A stretch of DNA of 64,000 nt, taken from positions 10,277-74,276 of the forward strand of contig DASSSF010000031.1 in NCBI GenBank assembly GCA_035708565.1. The letters run 5' to 3'. The position numbers and the translations under genes were made by a program. The notes under the pieces are model-generated. The model was not told where the DNA came from, did not search any database, and saw only the letters and a program-made list of their open reading frames with translations. Numbering within the stretch: position 1 is the stretch's first letter; every line of letters begins with the position of its first letter. Origin of the DNA: Candidatus Limnocylindria bacterium. GTDB taxonomy: Bacteria; Chloroflexota; Limnocylindria; P2-11E. Shown one piece after another: positions 2,910 through 46,867 of this stretch.

Positions 2910-4057
2910 CGTGCCGGCAGCGGCCCGGGCGCGAGCCGCTCGAGCGAGGCCGCGATCGCCTCGACGCGATCGCCGCCGACGCGCTCGAGGAGCGCCTCGG
3001 CGAGCACCCACGCGACGGCGGCCTCGCCGACGACCGCGGCGGCGGGCACGGCGCATACGTCGGTCCGCACGTACGGCGCGTCCGCCGGAGCGCCGGTCGC
3101 GAGGTCGACGCTCTCGACGGGGGTGCGCACCGACGACAGCGGCTTCATCGCCGCGCGGAGGACGATGGGCTCGCCGTTCGTGACCCCGCCCTCGAGGCCG
3201 CCCGCGCGGTTCGAGCCCCGCACGAGGCCCGCGCCGTCGCGGCGGATCGGGTCCTGCGCGGCGCTCCCGCGCCGGCGGGCGATCGCGAACGCGTCGCCGA
3301 TCTCGACGCCCTTGATCGCGTGGATCGCGCAGACCGCCTGCGCGAGGCGCCCGTCGAGGCGGCGGTCCCACTGCGCGTACGACCCGAGGCCCGCGGGGAG
3401 GCCGGTCGCGAACACGACGAAGACCCCGCCCACCGTGTCGAGCGCGGCCTTCGCCGCGTCGATGACCTCGCGCATCCGCGGCGCCGCGGCGGCGTCCGGC
3501 GTGCGCACGTCGCTCGCGTCCGCCGCGTCGGCGAGCGCGTGCAGCGCGCTCGCGTCGAGGGACCCGAGATCGGGGACGTCGGCCGCGACGTCGGCGATCG
3601 CGGTGACGTACGAGCCGATGCGGCAGCCCGCGACGGCGAGCAGCTGCTTCGCGATCGCGCCGGCGGCGACGCGCGCGGCGGTCTCCCGCGCGCTCGCGCG
3701 CTCGCGCACGTCCCGCATGTCGGCGTGCCCGTACTTGCGGCTGCCCGCGAGGTCGGCGTGGCCGGGCCGCGGCGCGGTGAGCGGCGGCTTCTCCGCCGGC
3801 TGGTTCGCGAAGTCGCGGTTCACGATCCGCATCGCGATGGGCGCGCCCGTCGTCCGTCCGCCCGCGAGGCCGCTCGTGAGCTCCGCGTGGTCGCGCTCGA
3901 TCTTCGTCGACCGCGCCCCGCGGCCGTACCCGCCCTGGCGGCGCGCGAGGTCGCGGTCGATCGCCGCGCCGTCGAGCGCGAGGCCGGCGGGCACGCCGTC
4001 GACGATGACCGTCAGCTCGGGGCCGTGCGACTCGCCGGCCGTGAGGAAGCGGATCAC
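2906..4057 (-). CDS. aroC: Chorismate synthase
   Basis: VIRFLTAGESHGPELTVIVDGVPAG...GGYGRGARSTKIE...SARETAARVAAGA; 383 aa; GTG start overlaps the aroE stop by 4 nt. Confidence 0.9.
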   Translation of the reverse strand: MIRFLTAGESHGPELTVIVDGVPAGLALDGAAIDRDLARRQGGYGRGARSTKIERDHAELTSGLAGGRTTGAPIAMRIVNRDFANQPAEKPPLTAPRPGHADLAGSRKYGHADMRDVRERASARETAARVAAGAIAKQLLAVAGCRIGSYVTAIADVAADVPDLGSLDASALHALADAADASDVRTPDAAAAPRMREVIDAAKAALDTVGGVFVVFATGLPAGLGSYAQWDRRLDGRLAQAVCAIHAIKGVEIGDAFAIARRRGSAAQDPIRRDGAGLVRGSNRAGGLEGGVTNGEPIVLRAAMKPLSSVRTPVESVDLATGAPADAPYVRTDVCAVPAAAVVGEAAVAWVLAEALLERVGGDRVEAIAASLERLAPGPLPAR

Positions 4058-4872
4058 GGCGCCACCGGCGGCCGCTCGAGGGCCGCGTACGCCGCGCCGC
4101 GCATGATCTCGAGCGGCGCCTCGCGACCCGTCCAGAGCGAGAAGGACAGGGCCCCCTGCTCGACGAGCATCTCGACGCCCTCGAGCACGGCGCACCCCGC
4201 CGCCTCGGCGCGCGCGAGGAGCGGCGTGCGGCGCGGGCGGTACGCGAGGTCGGCGACGATCCGGCCCGGACGCAGCGCGGACGCGATGTGGAAGGCGTCG
4301 CCGTCGCGCCAGGCCGTCGACGGGACCGCGCTCACGATGAGGTCGCTCCGCGACGCGACAGCGGCGGCCGACGCCTGGTCGATCGGTCGCACGCCGAGCG
4401 GTCGCATCGCTTCCGCCGCCGCGAGGTCGCGCGCGGTGACCGCGACCTCCAAGCCGGCCGACCGCAGCGCGGCGGCGATCGCGCGTGCCGCTCCGCCGGC
4501 GCCGAGGATGAGCGCGCTCCGCGGCGCGAGGCCCGCGTGGCGGAGCGCGCGGAGGAAGCCCGCCCCGTCCGTGGAGTGCCCCGTCGTCCTGCCGCCGTCG
4601 CCGACCACGACCGTGTTCACGGACATCGTGCCCCGCGCGCTGTCGGCGACCACGTCGACGAGCCGCGCGACCGCATCCTTCAGCGGGATCGTCACGTTCA
4701 TGCCGCGCGTCTCTTGCGCGAGCTCGGGGAAGCGCCGCGCGACCTCGTCGCGCGTGACGCGCAGCGCGACGTACTCGAGGTCGAGACCACACGCGCGCAG
4801 CGCCGCGTTCTGCATGTCGGGCGACACGCTCTCCGCGACCGGGTCGCCGATCAGCGCGATGCGTCCCGTCAC
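4054..4872 (-). CDS. aroE: Shikimate 5-dehydrogenase
   Basis: VTGRIALIGDPVAESVSPDMQNAA...NVTIPLK...ILGAGGAARAIA motifs; GTG start overlaps the tyrA stop. Confidence 0.8.
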   Translation of the reverse strand: MTGRIALIGDPVAESVSPDMQNAALRACGLDLEYVALRVTRDEVARRFPELAQETRGMNVTIPLKDAVARLVDVVADSARGTMSVNTVVVGDGGRTTGHSTDGAGFLRALRHAGLAPRSALILGAGGAARAIAAALRSAGLEVAVTARDLAAAEAMRPLGVRPIDQASAAAVASRSDLIVSAVPSTAWRDGDAFHIASALRPGRIVADLAYRPRRTPLLARAEAAGCAVLEGVEMLVEQGALSFSLWTGREAPLEIMRGAAYAALERPPVAP

Positions 4873-5651
4873 CCGCCGAGCCTCCGCGCGAGCGCGGCTT
4901 CGTCCGCGACGAGGCCCTCGTAGTCCTCGAGCTGCCGCGCCAGGAGCCGGAGCGCGGGCCGCACGTCGCCGGCGGTCGCCGCGGCCCACTCCGCGACCGA
5001 GGCGGGGTCCGCCGCCGCGAGCCGCGTGGCCCCGCGGTAGCCGGGCCCGGCGAGCCGCTCCGAGGCGGGCAGCGCGGCGAGCGCCCGCGCCATGAGGTGG
5101 GGAAGCACGACCGTGACCGCGACGGCCGCGTCGTGCTCGTCCGCGTCGAGCACGATCGGCACCGCGCCGAGGGCGACGGCGAGCGCGCGCGCCCGTTCGA
5201 GCGCGACCGGGTCGTCGCGCACGGGGCACAGCGCGAACGTCGCACCGCGCAGCGAGGCCGGGTCCGCTCCTTCGGGTCCCGACCGCTCCGTACCCGCGAC
5301 CGGGTGGCCGCCGATCGCGTGGACGGCCGGCGCGAGGGCCCGCATCGCGCGCACCACGGGCCGCTTCACCGTCGCGGTGTCGATGACGAGGCTGCCGGGA
5401 CGGAAGCGCGCCCCGCCGAGCGTGGCGACGAGCGCCGCGAGCGGCAGCGCGAGCACGACGGTGTCGCTCGCGATCGCGTCGTCGAGCGAGGTCGAGCGCC
5501 GGCCCGCGCCGCGCGCGAGGCTCCGCCGCGCGGCCTGGTCGTCCCGGTCGTGGAGCACGACCTCCGAGGCGGCGCCGGAGGCGCCGAGGGCGCAGCCGAT
5601 GGCCGTGCCGATCTGGCCCGTGCCGACGATGCCGACGCGCCCGAGCGTCAC
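4869..5651 (-). CDS. tyrA: Prephenate (arogenate) dehydrogenase
   Basis: GRVGIVGTGQIGTAIG Rossmann motif, HPVAGTE, PDH-type C-terminal domain; GTG start overlaps the DAHP synthase stop. Confidence 0.75.
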   Translation of the reverse strand: MTLGRVGIVGTGQIGTAIGCALGASGAASEVVLHDRDDQAARRSLARGAGRRSTSLDDAIASDTVVLALPLAALVATLGGARFRPGSLVIDTATVKRPVVRAMRALAPAVHAIGGHPVAGTERSGPEGADPASLRGATFALCPVRDDPVALERARALAVALGAVPIVLDADEHDAAVAVTVVLPHLMARALAALPASERLAGPGYRGATRLAAADPASVAEWAAATAGDVRPALRLLARQLEDYEGLVADEAALARRLGG

Positions 5652-6664
5652 GCGACCCGCCGCCCGATGGCCGCGGCGACGCCGGTGAGCTCGTCCATCA
5701 GATGCCGGAATCCCCGCGGGTCGAGCGACTGGGGCCCGTCGGAGAGCGCGCGCGACGGATCGGGGTGCGTCTCGATGAGCAGCGCGTCGGCGCCGCACGC
5801 GACGGCCGCGCGCGCGACCGGGCCGACGAGCTCGCGCCTTCCGGTCGCGTGGCTCGGGTCGACGACGACCGGCAGGTGGGTGAGCTCCTTCAGGACGGGC
5901 ACGGCGTTGATGTCGAGCGTGAAGCGCGTCGACTGCTCGAACGTGCGGATCCCTCGCTCGCACACGGCGACGTCCTCGTTGCCGTGCGCGAGGATGTACT
6001 CGGCCGCCTGGAGGAGCTCGTCCACGGTCGACCCGAGGCCTCGCTTGAGGAGGATCGGCCTGCCCGCGCCGCCGGCCGACCGGAGCAGCGCGAAGTTCGT
6101 CATGTTCCTCGCGCCGATCTGGAGGATGTCCGCGTGCTCCGCGACGAGCGCCACGTCCTCGGGCGTGACGACCTCGGTCACGACCGCCATCCCGTGCTCG
6201 TCCGCGACGGTGCGGAGGAGGCGGAGCCCTTCGGCGCCCAGGCCCTGGAACGAGTACGGCGACGTCCGCGGCTTGAACGCCCCGCCGCGCAGCACCTTCA
6301 CGCCCGCCGCCGCGACGTACGCGGCGGTCTCGCGGAGCTGCGCCTCGCTCTCGACCGCGCACGGCCCGGCCATCACGAGCACGTCCGGGCCTCCGAGGCG
6401 CGCGCCGTTCGCGAGCGTGATGACGCGGTCCGCCGGATGGAAGTCGCGGCTCGCGAGCTTGAACGGACGGAGGATGCGCACGACGCGCTCGACGCCGGGA
6501 AGCTCCTCGAACATCTCGGGCTCGTACCCGCGCTCGTCACCGACGATCCCGACGACCGTGCGCTCGACGCCGCGGGACAGATGCGCCCGGAACCCGAGCG
6601 AGCCGATCCGGTCGAGCACGACCTCGAGGTCGTTCTCGGTCGCGTCCGAGCGCATGACGATCAC
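5648..6664 (-). CDS. aroG: 3-deoxy-7-phosphoheptulonate (DAHP) synthase, type I-beta (KDO8P-synthase-like)
   Basis: 338 aa; GPCAVESEAQ...LKRG...HLPVVVDPSHATGRRELV is typical of Bacillus/Thermotoga-type DAHP synthases; ATGA overlap with the aroH stop. Confidence 0.8.
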   Translation of the reverse strand: MIVMRSDATENDLEVVLDRIGSLGFRAHLSRGVERTVVGIVGDERGYEPEMFEELPGVERVVRILRPFKLASRDFHPADRVITLANGARLGGPDVLVMAGPCAVESEAQLRETAAYVAAAGVKVLRGGAFKPRTSPYSFQGLGAEGLRLLRTVADEHGMAVVTEVVTPEDVALVAEHADILQIGARNMTNFALLRSAGGAGRPILLKRGLGSTVDELLQAAEYILAHGNEDVAVCERGIRTFEQSTRFTLDINAVPVLKELTHLPVVVDPSHATGRRELVGPVARAAVACGADALLIETHPDPSRALSDGPQSLDPRGFRHLMDELTGVAAAIGRRVA

Positions 6665-7020
6665 GTCGCGCTCCCGGCGAGGTCGGGCCGCAGCGCCGCG
6701 GCCCGCCCGAGGTAGGCGTGCCGGATCTCGCGCTGCGTGCGCGCGGTGTTCCAGAGCACGAGGACGCGGATGCAGCGGGGGAGGACGTGCTCGTCGGTGT
6801 GCTCGCGGACGACGAGCATCGGGACCGTCTCCCAGCCGTGCGCCCGCGCGGCCGCCGCCGGGTTCGCGCCGTCGAGGTCCCCGGTGACGGTGAAGATCGC
6901 GGCGGCGATGTCCGAGACGTCGCAGCCGTTCGCTCCGACCACGGCGTCGAGGAGCGCGACGGTGGCGCGCTCCACGCCGGCCTCGCCGACGTCGGTCGCG
7001 CCGCGGATCCCGCGACAGGC
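6661..7020 (-). CDS. aroH: Monofunctional chorismate mutase, AroH class; start codon uncertain
   Basis: ...RGIRGATDVGE...AIFTVTGDL...CIRVLVLWNTARTQREIRHAYLGRAAALRPDL matches B. subtilis AroH along its length. No in-frame ATG/GTG/TTG lies near the expected N-terminus (ACRGIRGA), so the start is uncertain. Confidence 0.7.
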   Translation of the reverse strand, partial: ACRGIRGATDVGEAGVERATVALLDAVVGANGCDVSDIAAAIFTVTGDLDGANPAAAARAHGWETVPMLVVREHTDEHVLPRCIRVLVLWNTARTQREIRHAYLGRAAALRPDLAGSAT

Positions 7021-7039
7021 CTTCTCCGTGACCGTGCCC

Positions 7040-7090
7040 CCCTTCTCCGCTAGAAAAACGGAACGCGGAGCCTTCGCTCCGCGTCCTGCG
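7040..7090 (-). terminator. Intrinsic terminator / attenuator hairpin (GACGCGGAGC-GAAG-GCUCCGCGUU followed by CCGUUUUUCU) between the leader ORF and aroH
   Basis: A 9 to 10-bp GC stem read on the minus strand, followed by a U tract. An upstream segment CCGCGUCC inside the leader ORF can pair with the 5' arm GGACGCGG, giving an alternative antiterminator. Confidence 0.55.
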
Positions 7091-7112
7091 CCCGGTGCCA
7101 GTGGATCGGCTG

Positions 7113-7208
7113 CTAGCCCGACACGGCTCCCTCGGCGGACGCGGCGGCCCACGCCCAATAGGCGTAGGCGAAACCGAACCGCCGATACGTGGTCCGCATC
7201 GCCGTCAT
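7113..7208 (-). CDS. Putative aromatic-amino-acid attenuation leader peptide (31 aa, MTAMRTTYRRFGFAYAYWAWAAASAEGAVSG)
   Basis: ATG preceded by a GGGGG SD-like sequence. Seven Phe/Tyr/Trp codons cluster at residues 8 to 20. Its position between the pheA stop and the aroH terminator hairpin matches trpL/pheL-type leaders. Confidence 0.55.
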   Translation of the reverse strand: MTAMRTTYRRFGFAYAYWAWAAASAEGAVSG

Positions 7209-7246
7209 GCTCGCCCCCGCGCGGCGCCGCGTCAAGGGAACGCTCT

Positions 7247-8107
7247 CTAGGGGTCGATGACCGTCGTCGCGGCGGGGTAGGTGCCGATGACCTGGACCCA
7301 CGCGCACGCGTGGCGCATGAGGGCGAGCGCCTCCGCGGCCGGCGCGACGGCGGGGTCGCCCTCGAAGTCGACGTAGAAGACGTAGTCCCACGCCGCGACG
7401 CGGCTCGGACGGGACTCGATGCGCGAGAGCTGCACGCCGGCGGTCGCGAACGGCTGGAGCGCGCGCACGAGCGCGCCGGGGACGTTGAGCGCGGTGAACG
7501 CGAGGCTCGTCTTCGGCGGTCCGGCCCGGAGCGCGGCGGGGACACCGGCGGCGTGCGCGGCGTCCCGCGCGACGGCGAGGAAGCGCGTGATGTTGTCCGC
7601 GGCGCTCTCGATGTCCTCGGCGAGCACGGTGAGGCCGTAGCGCTCGGCCGCGCGACGGCTCGCGATCGCCGCGATCGCCGGGTCGCCGCGCTCCGCGACC
7701 TCGGCCGCGGCGCCCGCGGTGTCGAAGGCGATCTCCGCGCGGATGCCGCGCTCGCGCAGGAAGGCGTCGGACTGCGCGAGCGCCTGCGGATGCGAGCGCG
7801 CGGCGCGCACGCCTCCGAGGGTCGCTCCCGGAGGGCCGAGGAGGCAGTGGCGCACGCGGACGAGCGCCTCGGCGAGGACGCGGATCCGCTCGTCGCCGCG
7901 GAGGAGGTCGAACACGTCGGCAACGGGCCCCGCGTACGAGTTCTCGACGGGAACGACCGCGGCATCCGCCGCCGCGTCGCGAAGGGCGGCGAACGCGGCG
8001 TCGAAGCTCGCGTGCGGGAGGAGCGTCGCCGACGGGAACAGCGCCGCCGCGGCGGACTCCGAGTACGCGCCTGCGACGCCCTGGAACGCGACGCGCAGCG
8101 CGGTCAC
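7247..8107 (-). CDS. pheA: Prephenate dehydratase
   Basis: RVAFQGVAGAYSE...PDT domain...TRF...ESRP plus ACT domain; ATG start overlaps the aroA stop (ATGA). Confidence 0.85.
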   Translation of the reverse strand: MTALRVAFQGVAGAYSESAAAALFPSATLLPHASFDAAFAALRDAAADAAVVPVENSYAGPVADVFDLLRGDERIRVLAEALVRVRHCLLGPPGATLGGVRAARSHPQALAQSDAFLRERGIRAEIAFDTAGAAAEVAERGDPAIAAIASRRAAERYGLTVLAEDIESAADNITRFLAVARDAAHAAGVPAALRAGPPKTSLAFTALNVPGALVRALQPFATAGVQLSRIESRPSRVAAWDYVFYVDFEGDPAVAPAAEALALMRHACAWVQVIGTYPAATTVIDP

Positions 8108-9375
8108 GCGAGTTCGCGGAGCATGTCGAAGAATCCGGGGTACGTCTTCGTGACCGCGTCGGCGCCCTCGATCGCGACGCCGGGCACCTGGAGCCCGAGC
8201 ACCGCGAACGCCATCGCGATGCGGTGATCGCCGCGCGCGTCGACGACGCCGCCGGCGAGGGGCGCGGGCTCCACGCGGATCGCGTCGGCGTACTCCGTCA
8301 CGCTCGCGCCGAGGGCGCGGAGCCCGGCCGCGACGGCGGCGACCCGGTCGCTCTCCTGCCGCCGCGTGTGCCCGATCCCGGTGAGCTCCGTGGGCGTCGA
8401 CGCGCAGGCGCCGATCACGGCGAGCGTCGGGAACACGTCGGAGCAGTCGCGGACGTCCGCCGTGACGCCGAAGAGCGCGCCGGTGCGCCTGACCGTCACG
8501 CCGAGGCCGCCGAAGGCGGACGCGTCGACCGCGCAGCCCGCCGCGCGGAGCAGGTCGAAGAAGCGCGCGTCGCCCTGCGCTCCCCGGCGCGTCGACGCGT
8601 CCACGTTCTCGACGGTCACCGACCCGCCGAGGATCGCGGCCGCGGCGGCCGGGTAGGTCGCGGCCGTCACGTCACCGGGGATCTCGACGTCGCGCGCGCG
8701 GACCTCCTGTGGCCGCACCTCGAAGGTGCGCGGCGCCGGGCGCGCGACCTCGACGCCGCGCGCCTCGAGCGCCGCCACGGTGAGCTCGACGAACGGCTCC
8801 GAGACGAGCGGACCGGTGATCCGCAGCCGGACCCCGTTCGCCGTGCGCGGCGCGGCGAGCAGGAGCGCCGACGCGAACTGGCTCGACTCGGCCCCCGACA
8901 CCGCGACCTCGCCGCCGGCCAGCGGGCCGGACACGGTGATCGGCAGCGCCTCGCCCTCGGCCGTGGCGCCGAGCGCCCGCAGCGCGTCCACGAGCGCGGC
9001 GATCGGCCGCCGGCGGAGCTGGGGGCTCCCGTCGACGGTCACGCGGCCGCCGCCCAGCGCGGCGAGGGCCAGGCCGAAGCGCGCGACGGTCCCGCCGTCC
9101 CCGGCGTCGACCGTGACGCTGCGGCCGGGCGGGGTCGGCGAGCCGCGCACGACGATGCGCTCGGCGTCGCGCGAGACCTCGTAGCCGAGGTCCACGAGCG
9201 CCTGCTGCATCGCGCGGACGTCGTCGCCCGGGTCAAGCGGGCCGATCTCGAGCCGCGACCTGCCCGCGGCGAGCGCCGAGAGGACGAGCTCCCGGTTCGT
9301 CACGCTCTTCGACGCGGGGACGCGCACGCGCTTCTCGATCGGGTGACGGATCGGGGGGATGGGTCGCGGAGCCAC
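8104..9375 (-). CDS. aroA: 3-phosphoshikimate 1-carboxyvinyltransferase (EPSP synthase)
   Basis: PASKSVTNRELVLSALAAG...GDGGTVARF...RPI...GDHRIAMAFAV; GTG start (VAPRPIPP...); 423 aa. Confidence 0.9.
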   Translation of the reverse strand: MAPRPIPPIRHPIEKRVRVPASKSVTNRELVLSALAAGRSRLEIGPLDPGDDVRAMQQALVDLGYEVSRDAERIVVRGSPTPPGRSVTVDAGDGGTVARFGLALAALGGGRVTVDGSPQLRRRPIAALVDALRALGATAEGEALPITVSGPLAGGEVAVSGAESSQFASALLLAAPRTANGVRLRITGPLVSEPFVELTVAALEARGVEVARPAPRTFEVRPQEVRARDVEIPGDVTAATYPAAAAAILGGSVTVENVDASTRRGAQGDARFFDLLRAAGCAVDASAFGGLGVTVRRTGALFGVTADVRDCSDVFPTLAVIGACASTPTELTGIGHTRRQESDRVAAVAAGLRALGASVTEYADAIRVEPAPLAGGVVDARGDHRIAMAFAVLGLQVPGVAIEGADAVTKTYPGFFDMLRELA

Positions 9376-9396
9376 GGACGAGCGATCATATGGGAA

Positions 9397-10551
9397 GTGA
9401 CACGCAACGGCGGCGCCGGCCCGCTCGTCCTCGTCGCGGTCGCGGGCGTCCTCGCGGCCGGCGCCTACCTGTTCCTGTTCGGGGCGCCGTTCGCGGATCC
9501 CGCGACGTCCGCCCCGCGCGGCGGTGCGCCCTCCGCCTCCGCCTCGCCGCGCGCGACGCCCGCGCCGAAGCCGCCTGAGCTCAAGATCGCGCACGACACC
9601 TGCTGCACGCAGGCAGCGCGGTTCCTGAGCGTGACCTGGACGTCGTCGGAGCCCGTGAGCGAGGCTGCCGTGGCCGTCGCGCCGGACCCCGGGTTCGCGT
9701 GCGCCGCGACGGTCGACGAGAGCCGCGTCAAGGGCACGTTCGGATGCGCCGGGCTCCTGCGCGGCGGCGTCGACCACACCGCGACCCTCACGGTGCGGAC
9801 GGCCGCCGGATCGTTCCCGGTCGCGCACCGGTTCAGGACGATGGGCGACCGCCTCACGGACGTGAGGTGGTTCACCGAGTTCGAGGACCCGCGCGGCGAC
9901 CCCCTCGCGTGTGCCGCCGCGAGCGTGCGGATCGTGCAGAACTACACGACGGGCCAGGACAAGGCGACGGCCGAGCAGATCCTGCGACAGGGCCAGGGCC
10001 TCAACCGCAGCCGCGACCCCGGCATCGACCCGGTCGCGATCGCCGCGGTGCAGCGCGCGCTCGATCCGCGGAACGCCTACCACTACTACCGCTTCGACAC
10101 GCGCGAGGACGCGACGTACGCCGCGGTCTACTGGCTCCTGCGGAGCGGCAAGCCGGTCCACGTGATCACGCTCGCCGGGCAGCACGATCCGCTGCTCATC
10201 GGTTTCATGGGGACGTTCGGCACGCACTTCGGCGACCCCGCGAACGACGTCACCGGCGTCGTGGTGCAGGACCCGCAGCGAGGCGACATGCGGCCGGAGA
10301 CGCTGAGCCGCCGGCCCGACAAGTACCGCACGCCAGAGTTCCAGACCGGGCGCCTGCTCCTGCCGGGCGAGTGGTACCGCGACGAGTGGTGGCTCGGCTT
10401 CGCGTACGCGGCCGTGGTCGACGGCGTGAACATCGACCGGAACGACGGCGCGTACCCGCTGCCGCACTGGGCGGGGAAGTTCGTGATCGTCGTCGACGAT
10501 GCCGACCCTCAGTGGCCCGCCGACCGCGAAGGCAGGGTGAGGTTCCGATGA
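9397..10551 (+). CDS. Hypothetical membrane-anchored extracytoplasmic protein (N-terminal TM helix; possible Cys/His papain-like fold domain)
   Basis: GTG start; PLVLVAVAGVLAAGAYLFLF signal-anchor; strong GC3 bias; C-terminal domain with conserved Cys and His. Divergent from aroA with only about 21 nt between the starts. Confidence 0.5.
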   Translation: MTRNGGAGPLVLVAVAGVLAAGAYLFLFGAPFADPATSAPRGGAPSASASPRATPAPKPPELKIAHDTCCTQAARFLSVTWTSSEPVSEAAVAVAPDPGFACAATVDESRVKGTFGCAGLLRGGVDHTATLTVRTAAGSFPVAHRFRTMGDRLTDVRWFTEFEDPRGDPLACAAASVRIVQNYTTGQDKATAEQILRQGQGLNRSRDPGIDPVAIAAVQRALDPRNAYHYYRFDTREDATYAAVYWLLRSGKPVHVITLAGQHDPLLIGFMGTFGTHFGDPANDVTGVVVQDPQRGDMRPETLSRRPDKYRTPEFQTGRLLLPGEWYRDEWWLGFAYAAVVDGVNIDRNDGAYPLPHWAGKFVIVVDDADPQWPADREGRVRFR

Positions 10552-14981: not shown

Positions 14982-16366
14982 GCGACCGCTTCGACCGCGT
15001 CGCCGCGTCGCTCGCGGAGGCGATGGACCGCTGGACCGTGCCCGGCGCGGCCCTCGGCATCGTGCACGAGGGACGCCGCCAGACCGCGTGCTTCGGCGTC
15101 ACGAGCGCCCTGGACCCGCTTCCCGTCCACGACGACACGTTCTTCCAGATCGGGTCGACGACGAAGACGATGACGGCGACGGTCGCGGTCCGGCTCGCGG
15201 CCGAGGGGCGTCTCGACCTCGACGCGCCGCTCCGCCGCTACGTGCCGGAGCTGCGGCTCGCCGACGAGGACGCGGCGGCGCGCGTGTCGATGACCCACAT
15301 CCTTACCCACAGCGGCGGCTGGCTCGGCGACTTCTTCGAGAACACCGGCCGCGGCGACGACGCGCTCGCGACGGCGGTCCAGCGCCTCGCGGACCTGCCG
15401 CACCTCACGCCGGTCGGGAGCGAGTGGCACTACCTCAACTCGGGCTTCTACCTGGCGGGCCGCGTGATCGAGATCGTCACGGGCATGACGTTCGAGGCGG
15501 CGATGCGCGAGCTCCTCTTCGAGCCCCTCGGCATGCGCATGACGAAGTTCTTCCCGGAGGAGGTGATCGCGTACCGCGTCGCCGTCGGCCACTACGTCCG
15601 CGACGGCGTCCCGGAGGTCGTCCGGCAGTGGGCCCTGCACCGCTCGGCGCACGCGGCGGGCGGCGCGATCTCGACGGTGGGAGACCAGCTGACGTACGCG
15701 GAGCTCCATCTCGGCGACGGGATCGCGCCCGACGGCCGGCGCGTCCTCGAGCGCTCGGCGGCGCAGGCGATGCGCGCGCCGGTCGGCCCGCGCGGCGCGG
15801 TCGGGCTCTCGTGGTGGCTGCGCACGGTCGACGGCACCACGCTCGTGAGCCACGGCGGGACGACCGCCGGGCAGCAGTCCGCGTTCGTGCTCGTCCCGGA
15901 GCGCGGCTTCGGGATCACCCTGCTCACGAACTCGTCGCAGGGCCACGCCGCGCACCGCGCCGCGGTGCGGCTCGCGCTCAGGGAGTACTGCGGCCTCGAC
16001 GACCGCGATCCGGCGAGCCGCCGTCCGACGCTCGAGGAGGCTCGCCCGTTCCTCGGCCGCTGGATGATCGCCCGCACGATGCTCGAGCTCCGGAGCGAGG
16101 GCGATGAGGTCCTCCTCGTCCCCGGGCCGCGTCCGGGCGTCCCGCCGCCGCCGAACGGGTGGCCCCCGTACGCGCCGCCTGCGCGGTGCGGCATCGTCGA
16201 CCGGGACACCCTCGTCGTGCTCGAGGGGCCTGGCCAGGGGAACCGCGTCGAGCTCGTGCGCGGCACGAGCGGCGCGCCGGAGTGGCTCCGCTTCGGCCTC
16301 CGCCTGTACGCGCCCGAGGAGCGCGCCGACCGGTATCCGGCCCGGGGCGGCGGGCTCGTCTCGTAG
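14978..16366 (+). CDS. Beta-lactamase-fold serine hydrolase (class C / D-stereospecific peptidase-like)
   Basis: SxxK (GSTTKTMT), YxN (YLNSGF) and HGG(T) motifs; GTG start overlaps the upstream stop (GTGA). Confidence 0.7.
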   Translation: MSDRFDRVAASLAEAMDRWTVPGAALGIVHEGRRQTACFGVTSALDPLPVHDDTFFQIGSTTKTMTATVAVRLAAEGRLDLDAPLRRYVPELRLADEDAAARVSMTHILTHSGGWLGDFFENTGRGDDALATAVQRLADLPHLTPVGSEWHYLNSGFYLAGRVIEIVTGMTFEAAMRELLFEPLGMRMTKFFPEEVIAYRVAVGHYVRDGVPEVVRQWALHRSAHAAGGAISTVGDQLTYAELHLGDGIAPDGRRVLERSAAQAMRAPVGPRGAVGLSWWLRTVDGTTLVSHGGTTAGQQSAFVLVPERGFGITLLTNSSQGHAAHRAAVRLALREYCGLDDRDPASRRPTLEEARPFLGRWMIARTMLELRSEGDEVLLVPGPRPGVPPPPNGWPPYAPPARCGIVDRDTLVVLEGPGQGNRVELVRGTSGAPEWLRFGLRLYAPEERADRYPARGGGLVS

Positions 16367-16392
16367 CGCGCGTCCAGGAGTACAACGTTCCC

Positions 16393-17790
16393 ATGGAACG
16401 CGTCCCTCGACGCCGCCGCTGGCGCTGGGGCTGGTTCGTCGCGGTCCTCGGGCTCGGGCTCGGGTCGCTCAGCGTCGCGACGTCGGCCGCCGCCTCCTCC
16501 GACGCGGCGTGGCGCGCGGCGCCGGCGGCGGCCGCCGAGGGGGGCCGTGTGGTCGTCGGGCACATCCGGGGCGTCATCAACCCGATCACCGACCGGTACG
16601 TCGAGCGCGTCCTCGGCGGCGCCGAGGGCGCGAGCGCGATCGTGTTCGTCATCGATACGCCCGGCGGCCTCATCGACTCGACGTACCGCATCACGGGCCG
16701 TTTCCTCAACGCGCGTGTCCCGATCGTGACGTACGTCGCGCCGTCCGGAGCCCGCGCCGCCTCGGCGGGCGCGTTCATCACGCTCGCCGGCCACGTCGCG
16801 GCGATGGCGCCGGCGACGAACATCGGCGCCGCGCACCCGGTGAACGCCTCGGGTGGCGACATCGAGGGCGACCTTCGCGCGAAGGCCGAGAACGACGCCG
16901 TCGCCCAGATCACGAAGATCGCGCTCGCGCGCGGCCGGAACGCGCAGTGGGCCGAGGACGCGGTGCGCAAGAGCGTCAGCATCCGCGACGACGAGGCCGT
17001 GAAGATCGACGTCGTCGACCTCGTCGCGACCGACGTCGGCGACCTGCTCCGGAAGATCGACGGGCTCCAGGTGGCGCTGCCGCACGAGACGGTGCGGCTC
17101 GCGACCGCGGGGGCAAGGGTCGAGGAGGACGCCCAGAACATCATCGAGACGATCCTCCATCTCATCACCGACCCGCAGATCGCGGTGCTCCTCTTCACCC
17201 TGGGGACGTACGGGCTGATCTTCGAGCTCTCGAACCCGAGCCTCATCTTCCCCGGGATCGTCGGCGTGATCGCGATCGTCCTCGCGCTGTTCGCGTTCGG
17301 CACGCTGGACGCGAACGCGGCCGGCATCGCGCTCATGGTCTTCGCGGTGATCCTCTTCGTGGCCGAGATCTGGGTCCCGAGCCACGGGCTCCTCACGGTC
17401 GGCGGGCTCGCGGCGCTCGCCCTCGGCACGATCGTCCTCTTCCCGCCGGTCCGGCCGACCCTGCCCGGCTTCCGCTGGACCGTCGAGCCGTGGGTGGTGC
17501 TGACGACCACCGGGCTCTCGGCGCTGTTCTTCGGCTTCATCGTCCGCGAGAGCCTGCGCTACCGGGCGCTGCGGACCTCGAGCGGCGCGGAGACCGTGAT
17601 CGGTGCCGTGGGCAGGGCGCGCACCGCGCTCGAGCCGAACGGCATCGCGTACGTCGGCGGCGAGGACTGGACCGCGACGTCGGCCGCGGGCGCGATCCCG
17701 GCCGGCGCCCCGGTCCGCGCCGTCCGCGTCGAGGGCGTACGGCTTATCGTCGAGCCCGTCGCGCCGCAAGAGGAAGGGGAGCAGTCGTGA
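16393..17790 (+). CDS. NfeD-like membrane-bound ClpP-class serine protease
   Basis: Signal/TM N-terminus, ClpP-like domain (IDTPGGLIDS...), multi-TM segment and C-terminal OB-fold domain; precedes an SPFH gene. Confidence 0.75.
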   Translation: MERVPRRRRWRWGWFVAVLGLGLGSLSVATSAAASSDAAWRAAPAAAAEGGRVVVGHIRGVINPITDRYVERVLGGAEGASAIVFVIDTPGGLIDSTYRITGRFLNARVPIVTYVAPSGARAASAGAFITLAGHVAAMAPATNIGAAHPVNASGGDIEGDLRAKAENDAVAQITKIALARGRNAQWAEDAVRKSVSIRDDEAVKIDVVDLVATDVGDLLRKIDGLQVALPHETVRLATAGARVEEDAQNIIETILHLITDPQIAVLLFTLGTYGLIFELSNPSLIFPGIVGVIAIVLALFAFGTLDANAAGIALMVFAVILFVAEIWVPSHGLLTVGGLAALALGTIVLFPPVRPTLPGFRWTVEPWVVLTTTGLSALFFGFIVRESLRYRALRTSSGAETVIGAVGRARTALEPNGIAYVGGEDWTATSAAGAIPAGAPVRAVRVEGVRLIVEPVAPQEEGEQS

Positions 17791-18674
17791 TCGAGCAGTT
17801 GATCGTCCCGATCATCGTCGCCGCGATCCTGATCTTCGTGATCAGGAACGTCGTCCACATCGTGCCCGAGTACCAGCGCCTCGTCGTGCTCCTATTCGGA
17901 CGCTTCCAGGCGATCAGGGGGCCGGGCCTGGTGATCCTGCTTCCGCCGCCGATCCAGTCGTCGCAGACCGTGGACCTCCGCGAGTTCGTCGTCGAGATCC
18001 CGGAGCAGACCTGCATCACGAAGGACAACGCGCCCATCTCGATCGACTTCCTCATCTACCAGAAGGTCGTCGAGGCGGCGGACGCGGTCCTCAAGGTCCA
18101 GAACTTCCGCGCCGCGGTCCAGGGCATCGCGACCACCACGCTCCGCGCCGTCATCGGCGACATCCCGCTCGACGACGTCCTCGCCAAGCGCGAGCAGATC
18201 AACGAGGTCCTGCGGGTGAAGCTGGACGACGTCACCCAGCGCTGGGGCGTGAAGGTGACCACGGTCGAGATCCGCGAGATCACGCCGCCGCGCGACATCC
18301 AGGAGGCCATGAACCGCCAGATGTCCGCCGAGCGGAACCGGCGTGCGGCGATCCTCGAAGCGGAGGGCCAGAAGCAGTCGGCGATCCTCGTCGCCGAGGG
18401 CCAGAAGCAGTCGGAGATCCTCAAGGCGGAGGGCGCCCGGCAGGCGGCGATCCTGCGCGCGGAGGGGTTCTCGCTCGCGCTCCGCAGCATCAACGAGACC
18501 GCGGCGACGGTGGACGCGCGCACGATGGCGCTCCAGTACCTCGACGCGCTCGAGAAGATCGGCTCGTCGCCGTCGACGAAGTTCGTGATCCCGACCGAGC
18601 TCACCGCCCTCGCCGCGCCGTTCGCGGCGTACTCCGCGACGCTTCGCGACGAGGGCGGGAAGGCCCGGAGCTAG
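17787..18674 (+). CDS. SPFH/band-7 (stomatin/prohibitin-like) protein
   Basis: VIEQLIVPII... TM anchor, PHB domain, C-terminal AEGQKQSAIL repeats; GTGA overlap with nfeD. Confidence 0.8.
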   Translation: MIEQLIVPIIVAAILIFVIRNVVHIVPEYQRLVVLLFGRFQAIRGPGLVILLPPPIQSSQTVDLREFVVEIPEQTCITKDNAPISIDFLIYQKVVEAADAVLKVQNFRAAVQGIATTTLRAVIGDIPLDDVLAKREQINEVLRVKLDDVTQRWGVKVTTVEIREITPPRDIQEAMNRQMSAERNRRAAILEAEGQKQSAILVAEGQKQSEILKAEGARQAAILRAEGFSLALRSINETAATVDARTMALQYLDALEKIGSSPSTKFVIPTELTALAAPFAAYSATLRDEGGKARS

Positions 18675-18987
18675 CGGCGCGAGCCCGGAAGGCCTGGGAT
18701 CCGGGCCGCGTCCGCGCGCTGCGGGAGCGCCATCGCGCGCGGCCTGCGCCGCGCGAAGGGGGAGTAGACGCGCGGCGGCAGCCGCAGGGCGGCCGCGACC
18801 GCCGCGCGCGCGTCGTCCCGTGGTGAGGGGGAGTGGGCGGTGGGAACGCGGACCAGGACCGCGGTCGCAAGGGCCATCGCTTCACCTCGGCGCTCTTCTG
18901 GAGCGGGCTCCGGACCTACGCGCAGGTCCCCTGCGTCTCGTCGGGGACCCACCCGGCGTCGGGGTGGCCCCGACGCAAGGGCGCTAC

Positions 18988-19021
18988 AGAACGGGCGTTC
19001 GCATCTTAGAACGGATGTTCA
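18988..19021. promoter_or_regulatory. Two tandem Cheo/SOS-box-like palindromes (AGAACgggcGTTCG and AGAACggatGTTCA), centres 20 bp apart, 32 nt upstream of the ligase-like gene
   Basis: Both fit GAAC-N4-GTTC with an RNRY spacer (Gram-positive LexA consensus CGAACRNRYGTTCG), one position off on the 5' flank. Confidence 0.4.
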
Positions 19022-19052
19022 GACTGTCAAGGGGCTCCCCGCGCCCGCCGTA

Positions 19053-19688
19053 ATGGGCATCCGCTCGGCATACTCGGCATGCTTGGTGGAAGCCCTTCTC
19101 GGCACGTCGCTCGCGCCGCAGCGCCCTCGGTACGTCCGAGAGAAGGCGGAGCCCGACGCGTACATCCTCGAGCCGGAGTGGTCGGGGACCCGGGCGCTCG
19201 CGAGGATCGGCCACGACGGACCGCGGTTCATGGGCTACGAGGGCCCGCTCGACGGCCCGCGCGGGCTGCACGAGGCGATCGCGGCCGACGCGCGCTGCGA
19301 GACGGCGATCATCGACGGCGTCCTCGTCCCGGACTGGCAGGACGAGACCGAGCTCGAGCTCGATGCCGAAGGGAACCCGCTCGTACGGCCGCAGGGCGGC
19401 CGGCGGATCTTCGCCGCGTTCGACCTGCTCGAGGTCGACGGCGAGCCGCTCATCGAGGTCCCGCTCCTCGAGCGGAAGCGGCACCTGGAAGGCATCCTGC
19501 GGCCGAGCCAGAACGTGCGCCTCACCACCTTCGTGACGCGGGGCCTCCGCGCCTGGCGCGACACGCTCCAGATCCAGGGCTTCCGGCGCGTCGTCCTCAA
19601 GGCGTGGAACAGCGGGTACTCGCCGGGTCAGACGAACGACGACTGGCTGGTGGTCGAGAAGATCGGGCCACCCAGGGAGAGAAAGTGA
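19053..19688 (+). CDS. ATP-dependent DNA ligase-like protein with degenerate nucleotidyltransferase motif I (probably non-catalytic)
   Basis: 212 aa; ILEPEWSGTRALA aligns to motif I ExKxDGxR with Lys to Glu and Asp to Ser; motif III AAFDLLEVDGEPL...LERKRHLE; motif V FRRVVLKAWNSGYSPGQTNDDWLVVEK. Stop overlaps the gdhA GTG (GTGA). Confidence 0.55.
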   Translation: MGIRSAYSACLVEALLGTSLAPQRPRYVREKAEPDAYILEPEWSGTRALARIGHDGPRFMGYEGPLDGPRGLHEAIAADARCETAIIDGVLVPDWQDETELELDAEGNPLVRPQGGRRIFAAFDLLEVDGEPLIEVPLLERKRHLEGILRPSQNVRLTTFVTRGLRAWRDTLQIQGFRRVVLKAWNSGYSPGQTNDDWLVVEKIGPPRERK

Positions 19689-20962
19689 CCACTCGGACGT
19701 CCGCGGTCATCGACCACACGCAGCGCGATCCGTGGGAGGTCGCGATCGAGCAGTTCGACCTCGCCGCGGACAAGCTCCACCTCGACCCGAACATGCGGGG
19801 GATCCTGCGCGAATGCCAGCGCGAGCTGACCGTTCACTTCCCGGTGAAGCTCCACGACGGCACGGTGAAGGTGTTCACGGGCTACCGCGTGCAGCACAAC
19901 ACCACGCGCGGCCCCGGGAAGGGCGGCATCCGCTATCACCCGTCCGTGACCCTCAACGAGGTCAAGGCGCTCGCGATGTGGATGACGTGGAAGTGCGCGT
20001 GCGTGGGCATCCCGTACGGCGGAGCGAAGGGCGGCGTCGTCTGCGACCCGAAGCACATGACGCAGCAGCAGCTCGAGACGCTCACGCGCCGGTACACGAC
20101 GGAGATCGAGCTCCTCATCGGCCCGGAGCGGGACATCCCCGCGCCGGACGTGAACACGAACTCGCAGACGATGGCCTGGATCATGGACACGTACTCGATG
20201 CACCAGGGGCACACGTCCCTCGCCGTCGTCACCGGGAAGCCGCTCTCGATCGGCGGGAGCGAGGGGCGCAACGAGGCCACCGCCCGCGGCGCGGTCTACA
20301 CGATCATCGAGGCCGCGAAGCACCTCGGCATCGACCTCGAAGGGTCGCGCGTCGTCGTGCAAGGCTTCGGCAACGCCGGCTACTTCAGCGCGAAGTTCAT
20401 GCACGAGCTCGGCGCGGTCGTCGTGGGCGTGTCCGACACCGGCGGCGGCATCCACAACCCGAAGGGCGTCGACCCCGTGAAGGTGCACGCGTTCAAGCGC
20501 GAGCACGGGACGGTCACCGGCTACCCGGGCGCCGAGAAGGTCGACAACGCCGACCTCCTCGAGCTCGACTGCGACATCCTCATCCCCGCCGCGATCGAGA
20601 ACCAGATCGGAGAGCACAACGCGCCGCGGATCAAGGCGAAGATCGTCGCCGAGGCGGCGAACGGTCCGACGAGCCCCGAGGCGGACAGGATCCTCTTCTC
20701 GCGGAACGTGTTCCTCATCCCCGACATCCTCTGCAACGCCGGCGGCGTCACCGTCTCGTACTTCGAGTGGGTGCAGGACCTCCAGAACCTCTTCTGGCGC
20801 GAGGCCACGATCAACGCGCGCCTCAAGGAGGTCATGGTGAAGTCGTTCGCCGACGTGCTCGAGATGGCGAAGAAGAACAAGGTCGACATGCGCACGGCGG
20901 CGTACATGGTGGCCGTGCACCGGGTCGCCGAGGCGACGCTCACCCGCGGCATCTACCCGTGA
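19685..20962 (+). CDS. gdhA: NAD(P)-specific glutamate dehydrogenase
   Basis: 425 aa; GPGKGGIRYHP, KCAxxGxPYGGAKGG, GFGNAGY Rossmann motif; GTG start. Confidence 0.9.
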   Translation: MTTRTSAVIDHTQRDPWEVAIEQFDLAADKLHLDPNMRGILRECQRELTVHFPVKLHDGTVKVFTGYRVQHNTTRGPGKGGIRYHPSVTLNEVKALAMWMTWKCACVGIPYGGAKGGVVCDPKHMTQQQLETLTRRYTTEIELLIGPERDIPAPDVNTNSQTMAWIMDTYSMHQGHTSLAVVTGKPLSIGGSEGRNEATARGAVYTIIEAAKHLGIDLEGSRVVVQGFGNAGYFSAKFMHELGAVVVGVSDTGGGIHNPKGVDPVKVHAFKREHGTVTGYPGAEKVDNADLLELDCDILIPAAIENQIGEHNAPRIKAKIVAEAANGPTSPEADRILFSRNVFLIPDILCNAGGVTVSYFEWVQDLQNLFWREATINARLKEVMVKSFADVLEMAKKNKVDMRTAAYMVAVHRVAEATLTRGIYP

Positions 20963-21070: not shown

Positions 21071-23734
21071 GTGCAGCTCGTCGCGATCGACCTCGAGACA
21101 ACGGGATGGGAGCCCGCGTCCGACCGGATCGTCGAGATCGGGGCGGTGCGGGTCGAGCTCGCGGACGACGGCGCGGTGCGGCTCGGGCGCGCGTACGCGA
21201 CCCTCGTGGACCCGGGCCGCGCCCTCGACCCGACGATCACGCGGCTGACGGGCATCCGGGACGAGGACCTCGTGGGCGCGCCTCCCGTGGGGGAGGCGAT
21301 CGCCGGTCTCGCGGCGTTCCTCGGCGACGACGCCGTCGTGGGGCACAACGTCCGCTTCGATCTCGGGTTCCTCGCGCACGCCGGGCTCGAGCCCGCCGGC
21401 GCGCTCGACACCGCGGAGCTCGCGTCGATCCTGCTCCCGACCGCCACCTCGTACGCGCTCACGCGCCTCGCCGCCGATCTCGCGGTCGAGGCGCCGGTCG
21501 CGCACCGCGCTCTCGCGGACGCCACGACGTGCGCCCTCGTCCTCGGCCACCTCGCGCGGGCCGCCGCGGACCTGGCGCCCGACGTGCTCGACGAGCTCGC
21601 GGCGACGGCCGCGCTCCTCGGGCCCGCGGCGTCGCGGTTCTTCGGCGCCGCGCTCGCGCGGAGCGTGCGCACGGCGTGGGACCGGCGGGCACCGGTGCGG
21701 CCCGCGCTGCCTCCGCGCGCCAAGGATCCCGCGAAGGCGGCCTCGCTGCGCGCCGCTCGCGCCTTCGCGCCGGGCGGGCCGCTCGCGGCGGCCTACCCGG
21801 CGTACGAGGACCGGCCGGAGCAGCGCGCGCTCGCCGAGGCGATCGAGCGGACCTTCGACGCCGGCGGCGTGCTCGTCGCGGAGGCCGGCACCGGCGTCGG
21901 CAAGTCGCTCGCGTACCTCGTCCCCGCGCTCGCGCGCGCGCTCGGCGGCGAGCGCACCGTCGTGAGCACGCACACGCTCCCGCTCCAGGACCAGCTCGTC
22001 CGGCGCGACATCCCGTCGCTCCAGGCGGCGCTCGGCACGGACGTACCGGTGGCGGTCCAGAAGGGCCGCTCGAACTATCTGTGCCCGCGCCGCTGGCAGC
22101 AGCTCCGGGCCACGGCCGCCACGCCGGAGGAGGCGCGGCTCGTCTGCAAGACGCTCGTCTGGCGCGCGTCGACGGTCGCGGGCGAGCGCAGCGAGCTGAA
22201 CCTGCTCGGTCCCGAGGGTGCCCTGTGGGCGCGCATCTCCGCTGACGACGAGTCGTGCACGCAGCGGCGCTGCGCCGCGACCCGCGGCGGCTGCTACCTC
22301 GAGCGCGCCCGCACCGACGCCGCCGCCGCCGACGTCGTCGTGGTGAATCACGCGCTCCTCCTCCACGACGCGAGGGCCGCGGGCTCGCTCCTTCCCGACG
22401 CCGAGCACGTCGTCGTCGACGAGGCCCACCACCTGGAGGACGTCGCGGCGGACGCGTTCGGCCACCGGCTCGAGGACTGGCGGTCGCGGCGCGACCTCGA
22501 CCGCGTCGCGCGCTCGCCGCTCGTGCTCTCCGCGCTGCGCTCCGCCGACGTCGCGCGGGTCCAGCGCGGCGAGGGGCTCCGTGAAGAGGTCGCACGCGCG
22601 CACGAGCGGGCCGGCGAGACGTTCGCCGCGCTCCGCGCGCTCGTCGTGCCGCCTGAGGAGCGCGTGCGGGTCACGGCGGGCGTGCGGCTCGCCGAGGAGA
22701 CGTGGCTGCCGGTCGAGCTGGCGGCGGAGCGCTTCGACGACGCGCTCGGCGGCGTGCAGCTCGCCGCGCAGCGCCTCATCGACGCCGGCGGCGACGACGA
22801 CGAGGTGGGGGAGCTGACGAGCGCGACGAAGGAGCTCATCGGCGCGCGGATGGCGATCGCGCGCGGCATCCACGACCCGCGCGCCGTCGAGATCGCGTGG
22901 CTCGAGGCGACCCGCGAGGCGGTCGGCCTGTACGTGGCGCCTTCCCACGTCGGCGGCGCGCTGCGGCGGCTCCTCGTCGACCGTCATCGCTCCCTGGTGC
23001 TCACCTCGGCGACGCTCGCCGTCGCGGGATCGCTCCGGTTCGCGACCGAGCGCTTCGGCGTCGCCGACATCGCCGACGAGCTCCTCGTCGGCTCGCCGTT
23101 CGACCACGCGACGCGGTCGCTGCTCGTCGTCCCCGCAGACATCGCCCTCCCGCACGAGGAGCAGCACCCGGCCGACGTCGCGTACGTCGTCGAGGAGGTC
23201 GCCCGCGCGCTCGGCGGCAGGACCCTCGTCCTGTTCACGGCGCACACCGCGATGCGCGACGTCGCCCGGCGTCTCGAGGGGCTCGCCGATGCCGGGATCG
23301 CCGTCCTCACCCAGGGCGTCGACGGCTCGCGCCGCGCGCTCCTCGACCGCTTCGCCGCTGGGTCGAGCGTCCTCCTCGGCACGCGTTCGTTCTGGGAAGG
23401 GGTCGACCTCCCCGGCGACCTGCTCCAGTGCGTCCTCGTGACGCGCATCCCCTTCGACGTGCCGGACGACCCGCTCGTCGAGGGCCGGGCCGAGCGGTAC
23501 GACGACCCGTTCAACGAGTACCAGCTGCCGCAGGCCGCGCTGCGCCTCCGTCAGGGCGCCGGCCGGCTCATCCGCACCGCGACCGACCGCGGCGCGATCG
23601 TCCTCCTCGACCGGCGGATCGTCGCCCGCGACTACGGGCCCACGCTCATCGCGTCGCTGCCGCCTGCGCGTCTCGTGCGCACCACGGTCGACGAGGTCGC
23701 GAGCGTCGTCGCTCGACACGTGGCCGCGTCCTAG
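21071..23734 (+). CDS. dinG: DnaQ-like 3'-5' exonuclease fused to a DinG/Rad3-family ATP-dependent helicase
   Basis: N-terminal AIDLETTG...GHNVRFD...HRALADA exonuclease motifs; helicase motif I AEAGTGVGKSLAYL, DEAH box VVVDEAHHLED, 4Fe-4S Cys cluster, C-terminal helicase motifs. Confidence 0.85.
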   Translation: MQLVAIDLETTGWEPASDRIVEIGAVRVELADDGAVRLGRAYATLVDPGRALDPTITRLTGIRDEDLVGAPPVGEAIAGLAAFLGDDAVVGHNVRFDLGFLAHAGLEPAGALDTAELASILLPTATSYALTRLAADLAVEAPVAHRALADATTCALVLGHLARAAADLAPDVLDELAATAALLGPAASRFFGAALARSVRTAWDRRAPVRPALPPRAKDPAKAASLRAARAFAPGGPLAAAYPAYEDRPEQRALAEAIERTFDAGGVLVAEAGTGVGKSLAYLVPALARALGGERTVVSTHTLPLQDQLVRRDIPSLQAALGTDVPVAVQKGRSNYLCPRRWQQLRATAATPEEARLVCKTLVWRASTVAGERSELNLLGPEGALWARISADDESCTQRRCAATRGGCYLERARTDAAAADVVVVNHALLLHDARAAGSLLPDAEHVVVDEAHHLEDVAADAFGHRLEDWRSRRDLDRVARSPLVLSALRSADVARVQRGEGLREEVARAHERAGETFAALRALVVPPEERVRVTAGVRLAEETWLPVELAAERFDDALGGVQLAAQRLIDAGGDDDEVGELTSATKELIGARMAIARGIHDPRAVEIAWLEATREAVGLYVAPSHVGGALRRLLVDRHRSLVLTSATLAVAGSLRFATERFGVADIADELLVGSPFDHATRSLLVVPADIALPHEEQHPADVAYVVEEVARALGGRTLVLFTAHTAMRDVARRLEGLADAGIAVLTQGVDGSRRALLDRFAAGSSVLLGTRSFWEGVDLPGDLLQCVLVTRIPFDVPDDPLVEGRAERYDDPFNEYQLPQAALRLRQGAGRLIRTATDRGAIVLLDRRIVARDYGPTLIASLPPARLVRTTVDEVASVVARHVAAS

Positions 23735-44994: not shown

Positions 44995-45059
44995 TTGCGC
45001 TCGCTAGAACGTCTGTTCTATCATTCGCCGGCATGGACGGGCCGGCGGATACCCAGCGG

Positions 45060-45856: not shown

Positions 45857-46867
<1,011 letters not shown>

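Follow-up and report, generated by a model that had tools for sequence, protein, structure and literature searches.

In Bacillus subtilis and other Gram-positive bacteria, the LexA (DinR) operators, known as Cheo boxes, have the sequence CGAACRNRYGTTYC, and single promoters may carry several of them (e.g. those of lexA and dinC). The actinobacterial and mycobacterial SOS box is TCGAAC-N4-GTTCGA, and in these bacteria LexA controls the imuA'-imuB-dnaE2 cassette; cassettes of the ImuA/ImuB/DnaE2 type are the classical LexA-controlled mutagenesis cassettes. For Dehalococcoides ethenogenes, EMSA reportedly showed that LexA recognizes GAACN4GTTC in front of lexA and uvrA, whereas recA was not bound.

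In this study, a 64-kb stretch of DNA with 73% G+C (hereafter the window) was analyzed, in which two tandem palindromes with the core GAAC-N4-GTTC are located between a Band_7 gene and a ligase-like ORF. The latter encodes a protein with 100% identity to one annotated as hypothetical in the MAG of a Candidatus Limnocylindria bacterium, an uncultivated soil member of the Chloroflexota. The palindromes are likely to be SOS boxes, bound by LexA, that lie within a strong promoter of the minus strand driving a gene for a protein of 68 aa.

The boxes resemble those of B. subtilis in their core, in the purine and the pyrimidine at its inner positions, in the overlap with a promoter spacer and a transcription start, and in their tandem arrangement on one promoter. 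They differ in the flanks, where T-A/C (TAGAAC) and not C (CGAAC) precedes GAAC, and in the host, a high-GC member of the Chloroflexota; unlike the genes of the Gram-positive Cheo regulons, the small gene has no counterpart in Firmicutes. With Dehalococcoides the locus shares the phylum, the motif and a recA gene without a box, whereas the class (Limnocylindria) and the probable target (a small unannotated gene in place of lexA or uvrA) are different. The core is also that of the actinobacterial system, and in the clade the promoter-operator module described below is found directly upstream of cassettes of ImuA-like, ImuB-like and DnaE2-like genes. Unlike in actinobacteria, the window contains no such cassette, and the ImuA-like proteins of the clade are longer (about 300 to 450 aa); they also score far below the family cut-offs.

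Since Chloroflexi have previously been described as having LexA boxes of this kind and a recA without a box, there is no novelty in the regulatory principle, and the mechanism, i.e. occlusion of a promoter by LexA (the presumed binder) through two boxes, is conventional. What is new is (i) the most likely target, a small gene that is conserved but lacks annotation and is a candidate for a lineage-specific SOS effector of an abundant, uncultivated class of soil and freshwater bacteria, (ii) a recurrent and searchable module, TTGACA-N4-GAAC-N4-GTTCTA-N3-T, which may be used for reading SOS regulons across Chloroflexota MAGs, and (iii) a protein with a ligase domain but no catalytic lysine, whose gene accompanies that of glutamate dehydrogenase (GDH) in all loci inspected.

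Results and Discussion

Two conserved operators in one intergenic region

Both 14-mers listed in the preliminary description of this DNA were found where it had placed them (Table 1), and the gene order around the locus is kept in relatives. The exact motif GAACNNNNGTTC (GAAC-N4-GTTC) occurs three times in the 64 kb, against 0.44 expected, and three or more occurrences were seen in 0 of 100 shuffles; variants with one mismatch are not enriched (22 found vs 17 expected in the window).

For a position weight matrix, 65 sites were taken from loci of high-GC Chloroflexota. Its consensus, wwT[A/C]GAAC[R]nn[Y]GTTC[T/G]Aww, equals the Gram-positive Cheo-box pattern, also with respect to the R at the first and the Y at the fourth inner position. 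Only three sites of the window exceed 20 bits, at 45003-45022 (29.0 bits), 18985-19004 (21.1 bits) and 19005-19024 (20.7 bits), and the site ranked fourth reaches 7.4 bits. The matrix agrees with GAAC-RNNY-GTTC, with R and Y inside, and so bears out the earlier assignment of the motif to a LexA core of the Gram-positive type; its scan of the window scores no site near recA/recX, ruvB or dinG, where no palindrome had been seen before either. When examined as LexA operators of the Gram-positive/Chloroflexi type, both sites fit the clade consensus.

Among Candidatus Limnocylindria, the pair of boxes is conserved at 18 or more orthologous loci. TAGAAC and GTTC of box 2 are invariant in the 18 aligned orthologs, and box 1 is intact in 16/18 of the aligned regions (a count that includes L050, whose box 1 region aligns poorly) and degenerate in the other two (L053 and L142). 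Both palindromes are genuine, conserved SOS-type operators. Their centers had been described as exactly two helical turns apart; this is right for the window (20 bp), but across the orthologs the distance ranges from 20 to 22 bp. The range arises because the -10 hexamer is located between the boxes, with 2-4 nt left before box 1, and it is thus the geometry of the promoter, not helical phasing, that gives rise to the apparent two turns. Sites of nitrogen regulators of the GlnR, TnrA and AmtR type were also considered, given the presence of gdhA, and were rejected, as their half-site spacing and sequence did not fit when judged by eye.

Table 1 Coordinates of the features discussed in the text (positions refer to the window)
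Feature	Position	Strand	Details
NfeD gene	16159-17790	+	
Band_7/SPFH gene	17787-18674	+	
Intergenic stretch with both palindromes	between Band_7 gene and ligase-like ORF		
Small gene (68 aa)	18877-18671	-	ATG 18877 and stop 18673-18671; ribosome-binding site (GAGG) 7 nt upstream
Predicted 5' leader of small gene	18878-18996	-	~119 nt; start placed from the -10 element
Operator 1 (box 1)	18988-19001		AGAACGGGCGTTCG; core GAAC-N4-GTTC 18989-19000; 21.1 bits
Operator 2 (box 2)	19008-19021		AGAACGGATGTTCA; core 19009-19020; 20.7 bits
Predicted sigma-70-type promoter	19003-19030	-	-35 TTGACA 19030-19025, 16-bp spacer, -10 TAAGAT 19008-19003
CATACT, -10-like element	19069-19074	+	putative weak ligase-like/GDH promoter, without recognizable -35
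Ligase-like gene	19083-19688	+	start TTG 19083 or GTG 19086
Glutamate dehydrogenase gene (gdhA)	19685-20962	+	GTG start overlaps ligase-like stop (GTGA)
DnaQ-exonuclease/DinG-helicase fusion gene	21071-23734	+	followed by rpsB
ruvB	42.3-43.4 kb		
Third box	45005-45020		TAGAACGTCTGTTCTA; perfect 16-bp palindrome; 29 bits, best in window
recA	GTG 45858 to 46867		followed by recX, rny, ymdB

The boxes overlap a predicted promoter of the minus strand

A promoter scan of positions 18600-19200 revealed a single sigma-70-like site, located on the minus strand and matching the consensus at 10/12 positions, while shuffled sequences contained a mean of 0.0 such sites. The plus strand of this region and of its counterparts in two orthologs (L005 and L001) gave no consensus promoter in the scan; in each ortholog the sole match is likewise on the minus strand (TTGACA-16-TATTCT in L005 and TTGACA-16-TATCGT in L001). 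The same promoter is present in all orthologs that were retrieved through the promoter-operator pattern itself.

Both boxes overlap core elements of this promoter, which is predicted for the small gene, with box 2 in the spacer and with box 1 beginning 2 nt past the -10 element and spanning the predicted transcription start (~18996). Across the 18 aligned orthologs, no variation is seen in box 2, in TGTCAAG (the -35 element read on the opposite strand) and in the TA of the -10 element, and the register between the boxes and the minus-strand promoter is unchanged in 16/18.

The sites with their statistics and conservation, the geometry of the promoter, the selection acting on the small protein and the link of the module to SOS-type genes in the clade are observed directly; the start positions, the binder (LexA), the induction by DNA damage and any function of the small protein are what we infer. 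Dimers of a LexA of the Gram-positive/Chloroflexi type would occupy both boxes and stop RNA polymerase from binding to the minus-strand promoter or from clearing it. Upon DNA damage, RecA-stimulated self-cleavage of LexA would free the promoter, and its derepression would yield a transcript of ~330 nt encoding the Arg/Pro-rich protein of 68 aa.

The small divergent gene encodes a conserved protein

The small gene is the probable main target of the boxes. Its stop codon overlaps that of the Band_7 gene, and in some relatives gene callers report it as a gene for 76-83 aa. The orthologous proteins (n = 17) are 66-88 aa long and consist of a short hydrophobic N-terminus starting with Met-Ala, a PSPR motif and an Arg-rich tail, with RVPPRVYSPF..RR..RPMAV as the family core. 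Where residues are invariant, their codons differ synonymously in the third position (Pro CCG/CCA/CCT, Val GTC/GTG/GTA and Ser TCC/TCA/TCG), which shows that selection acts on the protein and not on the DNA alone. The GC3 of the gene (0.66-0.91) is below that of typical genes here, and the protein is expected to be disordered.

The predicted 5' leader of the gene in the window can form two GC-rich hairpins (MFE -63.6 kcal/mol, fold z = -1.9). These hairpins are absent from the orthologs, whose leaders measure 38-64 nt, with the exception of two divergent copies with 9 nt.

A profile search of 5.8 billion proteins with the small-protein family returned 31 clusters; all clusters with a source name are named hypothetical, and no Pfam domain was found in any of the 31. 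The small protein itself gave no match to Pfam and NCBIfam, and a single-sequence search of 1.84 billion representatives retrieved one relative. The family appears to be largely confined to Limnocylindria-type MAGs. Two contigs labelled Saccharimonadales (L031 and L142; 69% G+C) carry the Limnocylindria small-gene locus, and one member of the family (P0254) is labelled Methylomirabilota; these contigs and the source of P0254 are probably mis-binned.

In being short, lineage-restricted, fast-evolving and placed behind a promoter with putative LexA boxes, the small protein resembles the small SOS-induced effectors YneA, SosA, SidA/DidA, ChiZ, DinI and TisB by analogy only. It has no sequence similarity to them, no transmembrane segment and no LysM domain.

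The ligase-like gene is coupled to glutamate dehydrogenase

The preliminary description placed the sites 32 nt upstream of the ATG of the ligase-like ORF. The gene probably does not begin at this ATG (19053), because the first 11 residues encoded from it are not conserved, the database copy of the protein (200 aa) begins at GTG 19086 and the ATACT element lies further downstream.

The term ligase-like, as used in that description, is justified for one part of the protein, which has a nucleotidyltransferase domain of the LigD type. It aligns to this domain of LigD and of archaeal ligases (E = 1e-6 with Pfam and 7e-9 with the PDB profile), and the likeness to the LigD ligase domain (PF01068; PDB 1vs0 and 3rr5) comprises motifs III (FAAFDLLEVDG), IV (VVLK) and V (WLVVEK) as well as the alignment of the domain as a whole. 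The catalytic lysine and the OB domain are missing. The motif KxDGxR (motif I), with the lysine that is adenylated, was not found in the ligase-like protein, which has EPEWSGTR; the archaeal ligase 3rr5 has EIKYDGAR, and across 22 members of the family (EPEW.G.R) the position of the lysine is taken by E, D or A. For an OB-fold domain, no PF04679 match was obtained, and the chain ends ~10 residues past motif V. The protein scores far below the ligase family cut-offs and, as judged by its motifs, is not a functional ligase. Members of the family are typically 193-254 aa long, and in the AlphaFold model (mean pLDDT 63) the core residues 45-160 have a pLDDT of about 66-92.

The ligase-like family comprises at least 497 matches, and the protein of the window and those of L001-L007 and L129 are conserved at 66-81% identity. 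Unlike ligases, its members are always paired with a GDH gene: in every locus inspected (including L001-L007 and L129) the ligase-like gene is located directly upstream of the GDH gene, often with a 4-nt overlap. The GDH product contains the domains ELFV_dehydrog_N and ELFV_dehydrog (E = 1e-58 and 3e-82). Possibly, the ligase-like protein is a pseudoenzyme that binds nucleotides and has a functional connection with GDH.

In most of the 18 orthologs nATACT(CGG) is present 6-14 nt before the start codon of the ligase-like gene; in the alignment it was not found in L053, L142 and L050. From its sequence and position, the CATACT of the window looks like the -10 element of a weak, -35-less promoter, from which the ligase-like/GDH operon would be transcribed independently into a leaderless mRNA or one with a very short leader. 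The distance between box 2 and the ATACT element is ~18 nt in eight lineages (L005, L007, L035, L066, L094, L109, L065 and L076), in which the right half of box 2 lies where a -35 element would be. Five lineages have a distance of ~33 nt, L001 has one of ~38 nt and the window one of 48 nt, with an insertion of ~30 nt between the boxes and the ligase-like promoter in this lineage only. Box 2 at the plus-strand -35 position therefore makes LexA co-repression of both promoters plausible in some relatives, and many of them may be regulated in this way, while the insertion renders co-regulation of the ligase-like operon doubtful in the window.

The promoter-operator module in other genomes

The module TTGACA-N4-GAAC-N4-GTTCTA-N3-T was searched for in one genome per species (185,579 species) and was found at no fewer than 120 loci. 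According to the record titles, ~80 of the matches listed belong to Chloroflexota of several classes; this concentration is semi-quantitative, being counted among the matches listed. In Limnocylindria and other high-GC Chloroflexota, the module precedes a gene for a RecA-fold ImuA/ImuA'-like protein, which is followed by a Y-family-polymerase-like and then by a DnaE2-like gene. Other Chloroflexota carry it upstream of genes encoding a radical-SAM/HhH protein, a second radical-SAM protein, a glyoxalase/bleomycin-resistance protein and a DinB_2 protein. The motif is thus found upstream of SOS-type genes in Limnocylindria/Chloroflexota genomes other than that of the window. In Firmicutes, Y-family polymerase genes (dinB), recognized by eye from the N-terminal sequence, are located downstream, and in two Thermodesulfobacteriota (L139 and L141) the module precedes lexA, with a second box 9-10 nt past the -10 element. 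An exact second box within 40 nt past the -10 element is present in 16 of the 120 matches listed, and these double-box loci are 12 small-gene orthologs, 2 lexA genes, 1 radical-SAM gene and 1 locus without assignment.

Searches for lexA by tblastn (with queries from B. subtilis, E. coli, M. tuberculosis and Desulfobacterales) gave no match in the window or in the fetched Chloroflexota loci; among all fetched loci, only L139, L141 and two viral fragments were matched. A LexA profile search of the set of 5.8 billion proteins returned relatives from Bacillus and Desulfobacterales only, and no LexA of Limnocylindria. Since no lexA of this lineage was found, the binding of LexA at the boxes is a point that we infer; LexA is by far the most likely binder, because the module precedes SOS-type genes, the motif fits the consensus and the motif of Dehalococcoides is the same.

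Three further groups of loci carry the module. At 11 of the loci listed, from Myxococcota, Holophagaceae and other Acidobacteriota (L044, L054, L057, L062, L079, L087, L119, L130, L045, L112 and L133), it is located upstream of leaderless genes assigned by eye to the TetR family. This position points to an operator that resembles the LexA box but would serve the autoregulation of TetR, and because of these loci GAAC-N4-GTTC is not exclusive to LexA across bacteria. In genomes of the Anaerolineae type (L024, L025, L037, L038, L047, L091, L099, L106, L113, L114, L117, L125, L127, L132 and L137), the module precedes the gene of a conserved protein of ~210-285 aa with hydrophobic segments resembling transmembrane helices. 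The protein of L025 (233 aa), the one member of this group that was scanned, had no Pfam match; the group is a candidate for an SOS-induced membrane protein. In Syntrophaceae and other genomes of the Desulfobacterota type (L040, L061, L077, L105 and L108), the module is located upstream of a conserved gene whose product starts with MSLPAAVYRPRNPQ.SDYYRCVEDYFETF, presumably resembling the N-terminal zinc-binding domain of transposases.

Which gene is regulated, and by what

The preliminary description regarded the palindromes either as LexA sites that place the ligase-like/gdhA pair in a DNA-damage regulon or as sites of a different dimeric regulator. Their identity as SOS boxes is well supported, if indirectly, by the motif and by the context of the module; the choice of target is poorly supported, the boxes being fixed in a promoter of the opposite strand. 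Repression of the ligase-like/gdhA operon as the main role of the boxes would accord with their location, which in all orthologs is 62-77 nt ahead of the ligase-like start, with the conserved divergent layout and with the about eight lineages in which the right half of box 2 lies at a putative -35 position, ~18 nt before GATACT. However, no consensus promoter was found by the scan on the plus strand, the distance between box 2 and ATACT varies (about 18, 33, 38 or 48 nt) while the minus-strand register is constant (in 16/18), the boxes of the window end about 25 bp beyond the -35 position of CATACT, and the protein that would be brought into the regulon does not have the motifs of a functional ligase. 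We therefore consider this assignment rather unlikely, and the operon is probably a secondary target at best, whose control could coexist with that of the small gene. The case also shows that the wrong strand may be chosen when a palindromic operator is attributed to the large ORF closest to it.

With regard to the binder, another dimeric helix-turn-helix regulator (e.g. a repressor of the TetR or XRE type), which would place the small gene in a non-SOS circuit, is improbable. The identical module upstream of leaderless TetR genes (11 loci listed), arranged as if for autoregulation, would suit such a protein, as would the failure of tblastn (of the window and fetched loci) and of the profile search to retrieve a lexA for the lineage; yet in none of the orthologs does a regulator gene adjoin the locus, the genes downstream of the module in Chloroflexota (ImuA-like/ImuB-like/DnaE2-like, radical-SAM repair and DinB_2) are typical of an SOS regulon, the motif equals the LexA consensus down to its inner R/Y, and lexA itself bears the module in two genomes. 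That the palindromes arose by chance and have no regulatory role is an idea to which we give hardly any credence. Short palindromes do arise randomly, and the one-mismatch variants are no more frequent than this would predict, but the exact motif exceeds its expected number, two sites, separated by 8 nt, keep a constant register to a consensus promoter, and they are kept across lineages with diverged flanks, a conservation by which this reading is effectively refuted.

Control of the small gene by LexA through both boxes thus remains the preferred reading. As a tentative extension of it, which we hold to be possible without favoring it, the Arg/Pro-rich family (65-90 aa) might represent a new SOS effector, largely of Limnocylindria, that would inhibit division or modulate RecA or a polymerase, and its promoter would rank among the most tightly double-boxed ones of the clade. 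The pseudo-ligase/GDH operon might then be co-regulated via the shared control region, linking glutamate metabolism to the DNA-damage response.

Other features of the window

The third box, absent from the list of sites in the preliminary description, is located in a 65-nt spacer between the gene of a PduO-type adenosyltransferase (45692-45060, minus strand) and that of an APH(6)-like kinase (GTG 44994, minus strand). The upstream region of the kinase gene was read in 23 of 25 related loci from metagenomes; in 21 of these 23 the two genes overlap (GTGA), with neither spacer nor box, and the third box is therefore lineage-specific. No promoter at this box passed the scan of either strand. On the plus strand, GTTCTATCAT is followed after 8 nt by an ATG, an arrangement that resembles the leaderless ImuA-like loci, and the ORF that begins there is antisense to the adenosyltransferase gene. 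As the spacer is absent from 21/23 of the orthologous loci and no promoter was found in the scan, this box was dropped as evidence for a regulon.

Directly upstream of recA (GTG 45858), a lysine-rich ORF of 51 aa (45663-45818, plus strand) is present, which gave no match in Pfam and NCBIfam scans. At ~1300-10500, GC3-based gene calling fails because all six frames are unusually open; the minus strand of this region carries genes of aromatic amino-acid biosynthesis, i.e. an aroK/aroB fusion, aroC, aroA and the genes for prephenate dehydrogenase and chorismate mutase.
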